Translations under genes and position numbers: made by a program | Notes under the pieces: model-generated | What the model saw: the letters and a program-made list of their open reading frames with translations, nothing else | Databases searched by the model: none | What the model was told of the DNA's origin: nothing | Shown here: piece after piece, positions 13,433 to 25,042 of the stretch | How positions within the stretch are numbered: the first letter of the stretch is position 1 | How the letters are laid out: each line of letters starts with the position of its first letter | IMG/VR virus record: IMGVR_UViG_2778261168_000003 | Source of the DNA: a virus | Taxonomy: Duplodnaviria > Heunggongvirae > Uroviricota > Caudoviricetes | Length of the DNA: 35,120 nt | Reading direction: 5' to 3' (one strand)

Positions 13433-13450
13433 TGTGTGGTTGTCGGTACA
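13433..13450. promoter_or_regulatory. Late-activator (Ogr) dyad TGT-N12-ACA in the P/O divergent promoter region
   Basis: TGTGTGGTTGTCGGTACA; centre is 55 nt from the P start (minus strand) and 87 nt from the O start. Confidence 0.45.
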
Positions 13451-13528
13451 AATACCGCGCATTGTTTCACTGCCCCCATCACCGCAACCATAAGGCTCCA
13501 GTAAGTTTTTTCTAACGGAGCACGGCTC

Positions 13529-14362
13529 ATGACAGTGAAAGCAAAGCGTTTTCGCATCGGGGTGGAAGGTGCCACCACCGACGGACGCGAAATCCAGCGT
13601 GAATGGCTGGAACAGATGGCAGCCAGCTACAACCCGGCGGTGTACACCGCGCTGATTAACCTTGAGCACATCAAGTCTTATCTGCCGGAAAGCACCTTTA
13701 ACCGCTACGGCAAGGTGACGGCGCTGTTTGCTGAAGAAATCACGGAAGGTCCGCTGGCAGGCAAGATGGCGCTGTATGCCGACGTTGAGCCAACGGAGTC
13801 CCTGGTGGAACTGGTGAAAAAAGGCCAAAAATTATTCACCTCTATGGAAGTCAGCCCGAAGTTCGCTGATACGGGCAAAGCCTACCTGGTTGGCCTGGCC
13901 GCCACTGATGATCCAGCCAGTCTGGGTACGGAAATGCTGACATTCAGCGCCAGTGCAGCCCATAACCCGCTGGCAAACCGCAAGCAGAATCCCGCCAATC
14001 TTTTTACCGCTGCAGAGGAAACGGTGATCGAACTGGAAGAAATCCAGGATGACAAACCGTCCCTGTTTGCCCGTGTCACGGCGCTGTTCACCAAAAAAGA
14101 GCAGTCCGACGATGCCCGGTTCTCTGATGTGCATAAGGCCGTGGAGCTGGTCGTCACTGAGCAGCAGAACCTGAGCGCACGCACCGAAAAATCCCTGTCT
14201 GAGCAGGAAGAACGCCTGTCTGAGATGGAGACTACCTTGCAGGCACAACAAGCCGCCTTTAACGAACTGGTGGATAAGCTGAGTCATGAAGACAGCCGCC
14301 AGGACTACCGCCAGCGTGCAACAGGCGGTAACGCCCCCGCTGACACTCTGACCAATTGCTGA
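13529..14362 (+). CDS. O: Capsid scaffolding protein, P2 O-like
   Basis: 277 aa, first gene of the rightward capsid operon, acidic C-terminal half; synteny with P2 O. Confidence 0.8.
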   Translation: MTVKAKRFRIGVEGATTDGREIQREWLEQMAASYNPAVYTALINLEHIKSYLPESTFNRYGKVTALFAEEITEGPLAGKMALYADVEPTESLVELVKKGQKLFTSMEVSPKFADTGKAYLVGLAATDDPASLGTEMLTFSASAAHNPLANRKQNPANLFTAAEETVIELEEIQDDKPSLFARVTALFTKKEQSDDARFSDVHKAVELVVTEQQNLSARTEKSLSEQEERLSEMETTLQAQQAAFNELVDKLSHEDSRQDYRQRATGGNAPADTLTNC

Positions 14363-14378
14363 TGGAGCACAAAACCTG

Positions 14379-22825: not shown

Positions 22826-24552
22826 GCACAAAATTTTATACCCTGCTGACGGATATTGGCGCGGCGAAACTTGCCAGCGCCGCCGCGCTCGGTGTGCCTT
22901 TAAAAATTACCCATATGGCGGTCGGCGATGGCGGCGGAACATTGCCAACGCCGGACGCAAAGCAGACAGCATTGGTAAATGAGAAACGCCGGGCTGCGCT
23001 GAATATGCTCTATATCGACCCGCAGAACAGCAGCCAGATTATTGCCGAACAGGTGATCCCAGAAAACGAGGGCGGTTGGTGGATACGTGAAGTGGGCCTG
23101 TTTGATGAGTCCGGGGCATTGATTGCCGTGGGCAACTGCCCGGAAAGCTATAAGCCACAACTGGCTGAAGGCAGCGGGCGCACCCAGACCGTGCGCATGG
23201 TGCTGATTACCAGCAGTACGGACAATATCACCCTGAAAATCGACCCTGCTGTCGTGCTGGCAACCCGTCATTATGTAGATCAACAAATAGAAATTCATGA
23301 GCAATCGCGCCGCCATCCTTCTGCGTCTTTGACAGAAAAGGGATTTGTACGTCTGTATAGCGGTGTGGAAAGCAATGATGAAACAGTCGCTGCAACGCCA
23401 AAAGCAGTGAAAATAGCGATGGATAATGCCAGCGCCAGACTGGCAAAAGACCGCAATGGTTCTGATATTCCCAATCCGGCACTGTTTGTTCAGAATCTGG
23501 GATTGAAAACGACTGTTGATAAAGCTGCATCAGCGATTCAGCCAGGAGATTATGGAATTGGCCTGGCTTATCTGAAAACCATGGGAACCAAATCGCAATT
23601 TTTTGCTTATGGTACAGCTGTCGGCTATCCAGAAGTGCCAACACATGGTGCTGGTTTCCAGGCCTGTTACAACGACAATCGACGTGCACAGATTTATGTC
23701 GCTAATGATGGCAAGATGTACTGTCGATTCAGCATGTTATCGAAAATTGCCGATGATGAAACACCGTGGAATCAGGTGTTCACCAGTGCACATTATCCAG
23801 AAGCATCAGTGAGTGTTAAAGGAATGGTGCAATTGGGGAACGATGTAAACAGCGTGTCAGAAAATGTTGCGGCGACATTGAAAGCGGTAAAAATTGCGAT
23901 GGACAACGCCAGCGCGAGACTGGCAAAGGACCGCAATGGTGCTGATATTCCTGACCCGACTTTGTTTATTCAGAATCTGGGACTTAAACCGACGGTTGAT
24001 AAGGCTGAAAGTGCTCTGCAACAGGGAGCATACGGAATCGGTAGCAATAATAACTACGAAATGGGTGAGGTTTCACAGTTTCTTGCATATTCAGGTAATG
24101 CAGATGAAGTGCCATCGAATGGTGCAGGTTTTCAGGCTGTGTATAACAAGAACAGACGCGCGCAGATTTTCATCACCGGAGCAGGGGAAATGTATCACCG
24201 TTTCAGCGGCTCTGATACGGTTAAAGACAATACAACACTATGGCGTCGGGGTGTTTGTGAAGATGAATTTTCATTTGGCAGCAATTATCACCGAATAACT
24301 GGCGGTGTGCTGAAGCAGTTTTTTAACAGTTATTTTTCCGGGGCAACTGGTGTGGTGAATAAAGAGTATCAGGTGAATTTTCCGACACCATTTGCCCGTC
24401 AGTGCTGGTACGTGATCCCCGTTTTCCGTTCGTCACACGGTGGGAGTGTTGAGGGTGTCGCCATTACAGCTATTACTGCAACTGGCTTTACTCTGAGCAT
24501 CACCGGAGATAACGGTGGATGGAATATTGGGTTTATTGCGGAGGGGGTCTGA
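22822..24552 (+). CDS. H: Tail fibre protein H
   Basis: 576 aa; N-terminal MSTKFYTLLTDIGAAKLA... tail-fibre N-domain; variable C-terminal part contains a 160-aa tandem duplication. Confidence 0.85.
   Translation: MSTKFYTLLTDIGAAKLASAAALGVPLKITHMAVGDGGGTLPTPDAKQTALVNEKRRAALNMLYIDPQNSSQIIAEQVIPENEGGWWIREVGLFDESGALIAVGNCPESYKPQLAEGSGRTQTVRMVLITSSTDNITLKIDPAVVLATRHYVDQQIEIHEQSRRHPSASLTEKGFVRLYSGVESNDETVAATPKAVKIAMDNASARLAKDRNGSDIPNPALFVQNLGLKTTVDKAASAIQPGDYGIGLAYLKTMGTKSQFFAYGTAVGYPEVPTHGAGFQACYNDNRRAQIYVANDGKMYCRFSMLSKIADDETPWNQVFTSAHYPEASVSVKGMVQLGNDVNSVSENVAATLKAVKIAMDNASARLAKDRNGADIPDPTLFIQNLGLKPTVDKAESALQQGAYGIGSNNNYEMGEVSQFLAYSGNADEVPSNGAGFQAVYNKNRRAQIFITGAGEMYHRFSGSDTVKDNTTLWRRGVCEDEFSFGSNYHRITGGVLKQFFNSYFSGATGVVNKEYQVNFPTPFARQCWYVIPVFRSSHGGSVEGVAITAITATGFTLSITGDNGGWNIGFIAEGV
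23350..24230 (+). repeat. Tandem duplication of about 480 bp (160 aa) inside tail fibre gene H
   Basis: Near-identical nucleotide runs start at 23386 and 23866 (GCGATGGA.AA.GCCAGCGC.AGACTGGCAAA.GACCGCAATGGT); protein units AAT.KAVKIAMDNASARLAKDRNG.DIP.P.LF.QNLGLK.TVDKA...GAGFQA.YN.NRRAQI. Confidence 0.8.
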
Positions 24553-24986
24553 TGAGTTATTTTTACAGTCCATCAAGAAATGCATTTTATAACAGTGAAC
24601 TGAAATCTGATTATTACGATGCTCTCGATGCGTGGCCGGATGACTGTATTGAGGTAAGTGATGCAGTCTATCAGGAGTTTTATCTTGGTTATCGGGAAGG
24701 GTACAAAATGGTTGCAGGCACTGATAACCAGCCATCATGGGAAGAACGTCCACCATTGACCCATGAGGAACAGGTGGAACAGGCAGAAATGATGAAACAG
24801 ATGCGCATTAATGAGGCTAACAACCTGATTAATGAAAAACAATGGCCATCAAAATTACAGCTTGGCAGGCTGAACGAAATGGAGACAACCAGATTTAATG
24901 CGATGCTGGATTATCTTGAGTTACTTGAAAATATTAATGTAAGTGATGCCCCGGATATAGTCTGGCCTTTATCACCAGAAGTCTGA
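24552..24986 (+). CDS. G: Tail fibre assembly chaperone G
   Basis: 144 aa starting at ATG 24552 (TGATG overlap with H stop); synteny. Confidence 0.7.
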   Translation: MSYFYSPSRNAFYNSELKSDYYDALDAWPDDCIEVSDAVYQEFYLGYREGYKMVAGTDNQPSWEERPPLTHEEQVEQAEMMKQMRINEANNLINEKQWPSKLQLGRLNEMETTRFNAMLDYLELLENINVSDAPDIVWPLSPEV

Positions 24987-25024
24987 ATACATCCCCGCGT
25001 CTTCGGGGATTCCTGTATCCGCCG

Positions 25025-25042
25025 TTGTGCCATTTTTCATAC
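25025..25042. promoter_or_regulatory. Late-activator (Ogr) dyad TGT-N12-ACA upstream of FI
   Basis: TGTGCCATTTTTCATACA, centre about 85 nt upstream of the FI start. Confidence 0.45.

Follow-up and report, generated by a model that had tools for sequence, protein, structure and literature searches.

Perfect TGT-N12-ACA dyads as probable Ogr-family activator sites of late promoters in a P2-like prophage

The window analyzed here, a stretch of 35,120 nt, harbors a P2-like prophage. Three gaps between its genes, those separating P from the divergent O, orf401 from the divergent V, and G from FI, each contain a perfect TGT-N12-ACA dyad (Table 1). Gene identities obtained with Pfam place every one of these dyads in front of a late operon, as proposed in an initial annotation of the sequence. 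The positions given there were correct for the P/O and V dyads, but the FI dyad had been placed at 25025-25042, one base too low. The extended half-site described as common to the V and FI dyads is real (TGTGCTATT and TGTGCCATT). Three late transcription units had been assumed; while the number of dyads stands, the number of late promoters should be four, because the divergent promoters P_P and P_O share the P/O dyad.

Table 1 Positions of dyads, gaps, predicted promoter elements and the activator gene in the window
Feature	Position	Strand	Details
P/O dyad TGTGTGGTTGTCGGTACA	13433-13450	.	centre 13441.5; perfect TGT-N12-ACA
V dyad TGTGCTATTGATTACACA	20334-20351	+	centre 20342.5; perfect TGT-N12-ACA; 55.5 nt from V ATG
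FI dyad TGTGCCATTTTTCATACA	25026-25043	+	centre 25034.5; perfect TGT-N12-ACA; 84.5 nt from FI ATG
Fourth dyad TGTGGTGTTCATGGCACA	13375-13392	.	perfect TGT-N12-ACA; overlaps P start codon
Gap P(-)/O(+)	13387-13528		holds P/O dyad
Gap orf401(-)/V(+)	20159-20397		holds V dyad
Gap G/FI	24987-25118		holds FI dyad
P_P -10 TAGGTT	13393-13398	-	predicted; 43.5-48.5 nt from dyad centre
P_O -35-like TTGTTT	13462-13467	+	predicted; (A/G)TTG kept here in relatives
P_O -10 AACCAT	13486-13491	+	predicted; nAnCAT kept in the clade of the window
O Shine-Dalgarno GGAG	13517-13520	+	
P_V -10 CATTCT	20386-20391	+	predicted; cAnnnT ending 6 nt before ATG, kept in 12 V-upstream versions
P_F -10 GAACAT	25078-25083	+	predicted; 43.5-48.5 nt from dyad centre; nAnCAT kept in the clade
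Ogr/B-family late activator gene	32047-32265	+	72 aa; PF04606
Other match	26335		inside FII ORF
Other match	28330		inside T ORF
Other match	34147		5' end of flanking host permease ORF
Other match	34802		host DNA past the permease ORF

An Ogr/Delta-family gene is located after D, the position it has in P2. Its designation as Ogr-like in the initial annotation was borne out, since the 72-aa product matches PF04606 (Ogr_Delta) with 77.6 bits against a cutoff of 26.3 (E value 6.7e-22) and contains the motif C-X2-C-X22-C-X4-C. The protein is 51% identical to Ogr of P2, 54% to B of 186, and 39% to Delta of P4 over the finger, and all four cysteines of the zinc finger are conserved relative to these three proteins. 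It is presumed to be the protein that binds the dyads. The immunity region of the element is of the 186 type by position and size only, with a 191-aa ORF in the position of cI and with the first ORF to run rightward preceded by a 120-nt gap.

The motif is short, with six specified bases, and a whole-window count had been suggested to estimate its background. Eight matches to TGT-N12-ACA were found, compared to 9.31 +/- 3.13 in shuffled sequences, and there is thus no global enrichment across the 35,120 nt. The placement of the matches is, however, not random. The three gaps together comprise 513 nt, corresponding to 1.46% of the window, and each contains one perfect main dyad. The chance that eight randomly placed sites strike all three gaps is 2.1e-5, and a Poisson product for the same placement yields 5.6e-5; local first-order Markov simulations gave 0.03-0.06 per region. 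A similar density of the motif in coding regions had been named as an argument against activator sites. Since the total count is at background, this argument has to be applied to placement and not to the total. In the P2 genome, the exact pattern occurs five times with 8.6 expected, and none of these occurrences coincides with a known P2 site. Being at background in the window as well as in P2, the exact pattern is a poor detector by itself, and the case is carried by placement and conservation.

Besides the three main dyads, the whole-window scan revealed four matches that are not upstream of late operons (Table 1) and a fourth dyad, missed in the initial annotation, over the P start codon. 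P coding sequence makes up two thirds of the length of this dyad, and its centre would correspond to about +3 relative to the predicted P_P start. It is retained in close relatives and missing in more distant relatives that retain the main P/O dyad. Because it is mostly coding and not conserved past the closest relatives, a function as activator site was judged unlikely, and its occurrence is probably due to chance. The TGT at 13463, rightward of the P/O dyad, might mark another activator site that would provide P with a leader, but this was rejected as well, since a 3' arm is absent; in relatives, this TGT aligns with the conserved TTG of the -35-like element of P_O.

Conservation was followed in 80 near-identical phages, with counts referring to the regions that could be examined. 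A perfect dyad is located 87.5 nt from the O ATG in 66 of 66 P/O regions, 54.5-57.5 nt from the V ATG in all 76 V regions, the rest of the promoter being unrelated among them, and 84.5-85.5 nt from the FI ATG in 31 of 31 FI regions. The distance between dyad and start codon is therefore constant within 1-3 nt in these close relatives. At the FI site, 13 divergent sequences all retain the TTGT arm without change. Among the unique versions of the sequence upstream of V, 12 show at least 15 differences in 80 positions when compared with one another, and they are associated with different cargo cassettes. What these 12 have in common is limited to TTGT-N12-ACAA, the start codon, and a hexamer of the form cAnnnT, while the inner 12 bp are not conserved. 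The perfect dyad is kept even where the whole V promoter was swapped along with the cargo cassette. An 8-fold enrichment of the perfect dyad within the 160 nt preceding O, V, and FI, with clustered distances, was observed in 83 P2-like loci representing different species. In a diverse set of 80 Enterobacterales prophages, many have the dyad at a fixed distance; in the V regions of this set, a relaxed pattern was detected in only 17 of 77, and the TTGTG arm is visible by eye in most. Motif and Ogr-family gene co-occur across Enterobacterales prophages.

The sites were also ranked by a weight matrix trained solely on nine sites from P2, 186, and P4. Among about 70,000 positions scored in the window, the V dyad ranked first, the FI dyad second, and the P/O dyad sixth, which is the fifth distinct site. 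Other top matches at 33223 in the host permease gene, at 25933 inside FI, and at 14354 at the end of the O ORF were treated as chance.

Hexamers fitting nAnnnT are present 43.5-49.5 nt from every dyad centre, the offset observed in P2, for which the starts are mapped, but these -10 assignments are weak and partly ambiguous, P_V fitting both CATTCT and GACATT. On the P side, a TAnnnT hexamer at the offset of 43.5-48.5 nt was found in 21 of 24 sites among those listed for P2-like loci, and the mapped P start of P2 (3016) lies 7 nt past its TAGCCT. By analogy, transcription from P_P is predicted to start at or adjoining 13386 on the minus strand, the A of the P start codon, which would yield a leaderless P mRNA. 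For P_O, a start at about 13497-13498 is predicted, and for P_F at about 25090. P_V may start at about 20398, the A of the V ATG, with an mRNA that would be leaderless or nearly so; in the P2 record, the V transcript start is annotated on the V start codon. A consensus scan of the plus strand from 13200 to 25300 yielded no sigma-70-type consensus promoter, and no -35 element is conserved across the V-upstream versions. With core promoters this poor and devoid of a consensus -35, transcription should depend on the activator. Two further arrangements were considered and dismissed. For the V dyad to drive the divergent orf401, the minus strand would need a suitably spaced -10-like hexamer, which is missing, and a terminator hairpin preceding the FI dyad (24987-25018) folds no better than shuffled sequences (z -0.52) and was not flagged by a terminator scan.

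P2 itself is among the closest known frames for these sites. Ogr of P2 binds to inverted repeats that have their centre near -55, and it requires the alpha subunit of RNA polymerase (PMC3152322); the consensus of the P2 late promoters is TGT-N12-ACA, and the zinc-finger motif is CX2CX22CX4C (PMC3931495). The RefSeq record of P2 contains activator sites in the homologous three gaps, 55.5 nt from the starts of P and O and 55-59 nt from those of V and F. One of them, labeled 'activator binding site; pO, pP promoters', is equivalent in position to the P/O dyad. Gene order, the three gaps, and a single site for divergent P and O promoters match between P2 and the window, the TAnnnT hexamer is found at the offset matching the 55.5 nt between dyad centre and P2 starts, and both encode an Ogr-family zinc-finger activator after D. 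Dyad centre and V start codon are 55.5 nt apart in P2 as well as in the window, while the distance to the FI start codon is 84.5 nt in the window and 82.5 nt in P2, as calculated from the pF site at 17561-17578. Differences concern the dyads, which are imperfect in P2 (TGT-N12-CCA at P/O and F, TGT-N12-CAA at V) but perfect at all three sites of the window, the activator with its 51% identity to Ogr, and the spacing between dyad centre and P start codon, which amounts to 55.5 nt in the window and 78.5 nt in P2. The 23-nt leader of P2 gene P with its Shine-Dalgarno sequence is consequently absent from the window.

In 186, B-protein sites are likewise annotated in the homologous gaps of the RefSeq record, at 55-59 nt from mapped starts, the equivalent of the P/O dyad being described as 'B protein; activation of pV and p12'. 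The late promoters p12/pV, p32, and pJ of this phage also include one B site serving divergent promoters. The B site of pJ, GTTGTGCCAGACATCATCCA, resembles the FI dyad GTTGTGCCATTTTTCATACA, and pV/p12, TTGTGTGGGCGGTTGTCCA, resembles TTGTGTGGTTGTCGGTACA of the window; in 186 as in the window, 87.5 nt lie between the dyad centre and the ATG of the O homologue. The sites of 186 end in CCA or CGG and not in ACA, its leader on the P side is longer, and B and the activator of the window share 54% identity. As the characterized sites of P2 and 186 are imperfect (-CCA, -CGG, -CAA), a perfect dyad is not in itself the defining feature. Perfect TGT-N12-ACA dyads are present in the satellite P4, at the Delta/Ogr-activated promoters P_sid and P_LL (9493-9510, 9531-9548, and 9133-9150), and Delta belongs to the protein family of the activator described here. 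Unlike the window, P4 is devoid of structural genes, its P_sid promoter has a pair of dyads at a spacing of 38 bp, and Delta consists of the finger module duplicated in tandem. Candidate Ogr sites have also been reported for Smp131, phiRSY1, and phiRSA1 in four late promoter regions, 50-90 nt before the start codons; these dyads, TGT-N12-ACA-like or TGTTGT-N13-ACAACA, are, like those of the window, predictions only, and the phages possess an Ogr homologue with matching cysteine motif and no sigma-70-type promoters (PMC3931495, PMC5694545). They differ from the window in their hosts, Stenotrophomonas and Ralstonia, and the Ralstonia phages in arm and spacer lengths.

Activator gene, P2 and 186 annotation, matrix ranks, and conserved distances all agree with the Ogr-family reading put forward initially, and the three dyads are very probably the upstream activator sites of four late promoters. 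Drawing on the literature and annotation for P2, 186, and P4, from which activator binding, alpha-subunit contact, and exact starts are inferred, the following course can be envisaged. The 72-aa zinc finger of the Ogr/B/Pag/Delta family would be made as lytic development proceeds, bind every dyad, the centre of which precedes the transcription start by about 55 bp, and recruit or stimulate host sigma-70 RNA polymerase via the alpha subunit at promoters in which the -10 is weak and a usable -35 is lacking. The P/O dyad should act in both directions, leftward on P_P for the P-Q operon (terminase, portal) and rightward on P_O for the operon from O to S (scaffold, capsid, lysis, tail completion). 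The V dyad would serve P_V and the V-W-J-I-H-G operon (baseplate, fibre), and the FI dyad P_F and the FI-FII-E-T-U-D operon (sheath, tube, tape-measure). Such an arrangement is that of textbook P2, an already known kind of element, and in this sense ordinary.

Other explanations for the dyads have to be weighed against this assignment. A six-base pattern could occur at these places simply by chance and be functionless, as might be suspected from a window count at background (8 observed, 9.3 expected) and from at least four other perfect matches without a plausible promoter role plus the one over the P start codon. Yet the joint probability of the placement is only about 2e-5, the dyads are at the top of a ranking by an independent matrix, and in all regions of close relatives that could be examined they persist at a fixed distance while the intervening and flanking sequences have been replaced. 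The conservation data effectively refute coincidence, to which we assign next to no probability. Recognition of the dyads by a global regulator of the host, for instance CRP, in place of the phage activator is also highly improbable. Arms of the form TGTG...CACA do resemble CRP half-sites, and class I CRP sites are likewise found upstream of the core promoter. The CRP consensus is TGTGA-N6-TCACA, in which 8 bp separate TGTG and CACA. At the V site, this separation is 10 bp, and the remaining sites are devoid of the GA/TC positions, so that they do not qualify as CRP sites; moreover, the inner 12 bp are unconserved, the equivalent dyads are annotated as Ogr sites in P2 and B sites in 186, and the motif accompanies an Ogr-family gene across Enterobacterales prophages.

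Finally, the dyads could be true late-promoter elements for which a different phage protein is the reader or an additional factor is needed. The Ogr homologue would then act in another way, for example at some promoters only, in line with promoter specificities that vary among members of the Ogr family. The dyads of this clade are perfect (TTGTG...CACAA), as opposed to TGT-N12-CCA in P2 and 186, and the activator is merely 51-54% identical to Ogr and B, which makes differences in specificity plausible. On the other hand, the geometry is identical to that of P2, the proteins scanned with Pfam included no further candidate for a late regulator, and we know of no other family reading TGT-N12-ACA in P2-like phages. 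A different reader of the dyads is therefore considered improbable, and recognition by the Ogr-family protein remains the favored assignment.

Under Ogr-family control, two further features are conceivable, which we propose together tentatively and with slightly more doubt than confidence: P (terminase) and V (spike) may be translated from leaderless mRNAs in this clade, and P_V including its dyad may move with the cargo cassette of the S-V hotspot. Leaderless P and V mRNAs are predicted because the conserved -10 hexamers terminate 6 nt ahead of the start codons, and the latter are at exactly 55.5 nt from the dyad centres. A literature search, judged by title, yielded nothing relevant on a leaderless mRNA of P2 gene V. 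If P_V travels in an exchangeable cassette, each acquired cassette must bring or recreate a working Ogr site at the fixed distance from V.

For a common P2-like prophage of Klebsiella and Escherichia, four late promoters with their likely starts and the structure of the operons can now be annotated with confidence; past annotation, the significance is small. Over a large clade, the rule known from P2 and P4, TGT-N12-ACA, is obeyed in even cleaner form. The swapped versions of the V promoter represent a natural mutagenesis, which points to TTGT-N12-ACAA plus nAnnnT at a fixed distance as the minimal late promoter. This definition could aid the design of Ogr-responsive reporters and the prediction of late-controlled satellites and cargo genes.

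The stretch is a complete P2-like (Peduoviridae) prophage with host DNA on its flanks. Its late region (12000-27000) is 96% identical over 77-78% of its length to the Klebsiella/Escherichia P2-like phages Kp4865-2, Cartapus, KP12, and 4LV2017; for the P/O region, Salmonella SEN8, SopEPhi, and RE2010 are the next closest. Genes around the dyads were identified by Pfam, which also confirmed the Ogr-like gene of the initial annotation at 32047-32265. Read from the ATG at 32047, the activator comprises 72 aa, starts with MMICPLCG, and carries an intact C-X2-C-X22-C-X4-C motif. It is 51% identical to Ogr of P2, 54% to B of 186, and 39% to Delta of P4, all four cysteines being invariant. 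The gene follows D, as do ogr in P2 and B in 186. A plausible, near-consensus sigma-70 promoter (TTTGCA, 16 nt, TATCAT; 31983-32010) lies ahead of it; in 186, the equivalent promoter pB is under CI repression.

Genes, dyads and predicted promoter elements in the window
Feature	Position	Strand	Remarks
Terminase large subunit P	11620-13386	minus	Pfam
P/O dyad	13433-13450		perfect TGT-N12-ACA
Predicted P_O hexamer AACCAT	13486-13491		start near 13497-13498; normal GGAG Shine-Dalgarno
Scaffold O	13529-14362		Pfam
Tail completion S	18514-18966		Pfam
V dyad	20334-20351		perfect TGT-N12-ACA
Spike V	20398-20976		Pfam
Fibre assembly G	24519-24986		Pfam
FI dyad	25026-25043		perfect TGT-N12-ACA
Predicted P_F hexamer GAACAT	25078-25083		start near 25090
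Sheath FI	25119-26291		Pfam
D	30856-31956		Pfam
Ogr_Delta zinc-finger protein	ORF 32014-32265		Pfam, E 6.7e-22
Host-type permease	ORF 32501-34186	minus	

The P2 late promoters carry conserved inverted repeats, with their centre at about -55, to which Ogr binds; Ogr also has to contact the alpha subunit of RNA polymerase (PMC3152322). TGT-N12-ACA is common to the four P2 late promoters, and Ogr has the motif CX2CX22CX4C (PMC3931495). Comparable site predictions exist for Ralstonia P2-like phages (PMC5694545). The three dyads assigned to this activator family in the initial annotation were all found, each of them in one of the short gaps that precede the late operons; only the FI dyad had been placed one base too low.

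Such dyads could be obtained simply by chance, and the whole-window count proposed as a background estimate gave no excess: a pattern search detected 8 perfect TGT-N12-ACA sequences vs 9.31 +/- 3.13 in dinucleotide shuffles. Their placement, however, is not random. The three late-operon gaps sum to 513 nt, 1.46% of the window, and 8 sites placed at random would hit all of them with a probability of 2.1e-5 (Poisson product 5.6e-5); local Markov simulations yielded 0.03-0.06 per gap. Placement and the conservation described below both contradict the chance reading, which is excluded. CRP sites are likewise excluded, the TGTG-CACA spacing being 10 bp and not 8, and a different or additional protein reading the dyads is conceivable but has no support. 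A fourth perfect dyad, TGTGGTGTTCATGGCACA (13375-13392), absent from the initial annotation, lies across the P start codon. It is retained in 66/66 close relatives and missing from more distant ones, and probably reflects chance and coding constraint; a role at about +3 of P_P, the predicted promoter of P and Q, is possible.

Close relatives were defined as 80 viral contigs with a J protein 98-100% identical to that of the window. Wherever the regions could be examined, the dyad was perfect (66/66 for P/O, 76/76 for V, 31/31 for FI), at distances to the start codon of 87.5 nt (O), 54.5-57.5 nt (V), and 84.5-85.5 nt (FI). The region upstream of V, with 27 unique 86-nt sequences, tells the most. 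Twelve versions differ from each other at 15 or more of 80 positions, while their V genes are 93-98% identical. Conservation among the twelve is limited to TTGT-N12-ACAA, the start of V, and a hexamer, cAnnnT, that stops 6 nt short of the ATG. Since these versions associate with different S-V inserts, the V promoter has been swapped many times, the dyad always being retained in position. The S-V gap measures 89 nt when empty, 634-2315 nt with cargo, and 1431 nt in the window.

Among close relatives, S and V are separated by at least 16 different inserts or by none, each insert being paired with its own V-promoter version. In the window, the S-V insert holds a 401-aa ORF (18953-20158, minus strand) that runs opposite to S and V and takes the place of P2 orf30; it had no match in Pfam or PADLOC, and an AT-rich stretch (20200-20290) lies upstream of it. 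The cargo-free V promoter, present in 51 close relatives, contains an extended palindrome with 8-bp arms, TGTATCAG-CA-CTGATACA, at a site from 64 to 47 nt upstream of the V ATG; these arms exceed the usual TGT/ACA ones.

More distant conservation was analysed in 80 prophage loci from different species (Pantoea, Rahnella, Yersinia, Serratia, Erwinia, and others; J 63-98% identical), together with P2, 186, and the window. Perfect dyads occurred at 1.43 per kb within 160 nt before O, V, and FI vs 0.17 per kb overall, with distances clustering at 82-102 nt (O), 56-62 nt (V), and 76-88 nt (FI). In alignments, the position of the GTTGTG(C/T)CA arm is constant in most loci and the 3' arm is more variable; within the clade of the window, every dyad is perfect.

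The P2 RefSeq annotation lists activator binding sites at 3057-3087 (common to pO and pP; starts at 3127 for O and 3016 for P), 10239-10266 (pV; start 10308, also the V start codon), and 17555-17583 (pF; starts 17626-17628). In the 186 record, B-protein sites are given at 3798-3817 (common to pV and p12) and 14091-14110 (pJ). By sequence, P2 and 186 sites read TGT-N12-CCA, -CGG or -CAA, and the exact TGT-N12-ACA pattern recovers none of the annotated sites in P2; in P4, two perfect dyads precede sid and another precedes the leftward late promoter. Close similarity was observed between the FI dyad GTTGTGCCATTTTTCATACA and the 186 pJ site GTTGTGCCAGACATCATCCA, the P/O dyad TTGTGTGGTTGTCGGTACA and the 186 site TTGTGTGGGCGGTTGTCCA, and the V dyad TGTGCTATTGATTACACA and the P2 pF site TGTGCTGTCGATTAGCCA. 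A log-odds matrix trained on nine P2, 186, and P4 sites only, scanned over both window strands, gave its highest score to the V dyad and the next to the FI dyad; the P/O dyad came sixth (fifth distinct site). The remaining top scores fell within FI, the end of the O ORF, and the host permease gene.

All start positions for the window are predictions from sequence. Of the 24 sites listed, 21 have a TAnnnT hexamer (TAGCCT, TAGGTT, TATGTT, TAGTCT, TAATCT) on the P side, at exactly 43.5-48.5 nt from the dyad centre. P2 transcription of P has been mapped to a start 7 nt past the hexamer, 55.5 nt from the dyad centre. In P2 and 186 the P ATG follows at 78.5 nt, owing to a 23-nt insertion that provides P with a leader of this length, including a Shine-Dalgarno sequence. 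A second architecture, seen in the window and many other loci, has the P ATG 55.5-57.5 nt from the dyad centre. In the window, the conserved -10-like hexamers stop 6 nt short of the P and V start codons: TAGGTT (13398-13393, minus strand) ahead of the P ATG at 13386, and CATTCT (20386-20391) ahead of the V ATG at 20398. The V ATG is 55.5 nt away from the centre of its dyad, in agreement with the P2 annotation. Because no Shine-Dalgarno sequence would fit into such transcripts, both mRNAs are predicted to be leaderless. A downstream P start codon is unlikely, since relatives share the N-terminus from residue 1 onwards and the Terminase_5 domain begins at residue 11. The interval from the P/O dyad to the predicted P_P -10 contains a small inverted repeat, AGCCTT-GAATG-AAGGCT (13400-13417). 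No sigma-70 consensus promoter was found on the plus strand of 13200-25300, which fits activator-dependent promoters.

The window thus fits the P2 model in every feature testable by sequence, supporting the dyads as Ogr-family activator sites. Class-I-type activation is therefore the most likely mechanism: the prophage's own Ogr homologue would occupy the three dyads, one acting in both directions, and activate four weak sigma-70 promoters. Dyads and activator add one more example of a regulatory arrangement known for a long time; modestly interesting by-products are the leaderless mRNAs predicted for P and V and a V promoter travelling with hotspot cargo. Two overlapping ORFs (8897-9811 and 9808-10548, both plus strand), located between the replication gene A and the portal gene Q where P2 has old and tin, match components A (E 2e-122) and B (E 3e-93) of the PADLOC candidate anti-phage defence system PDC-M03.
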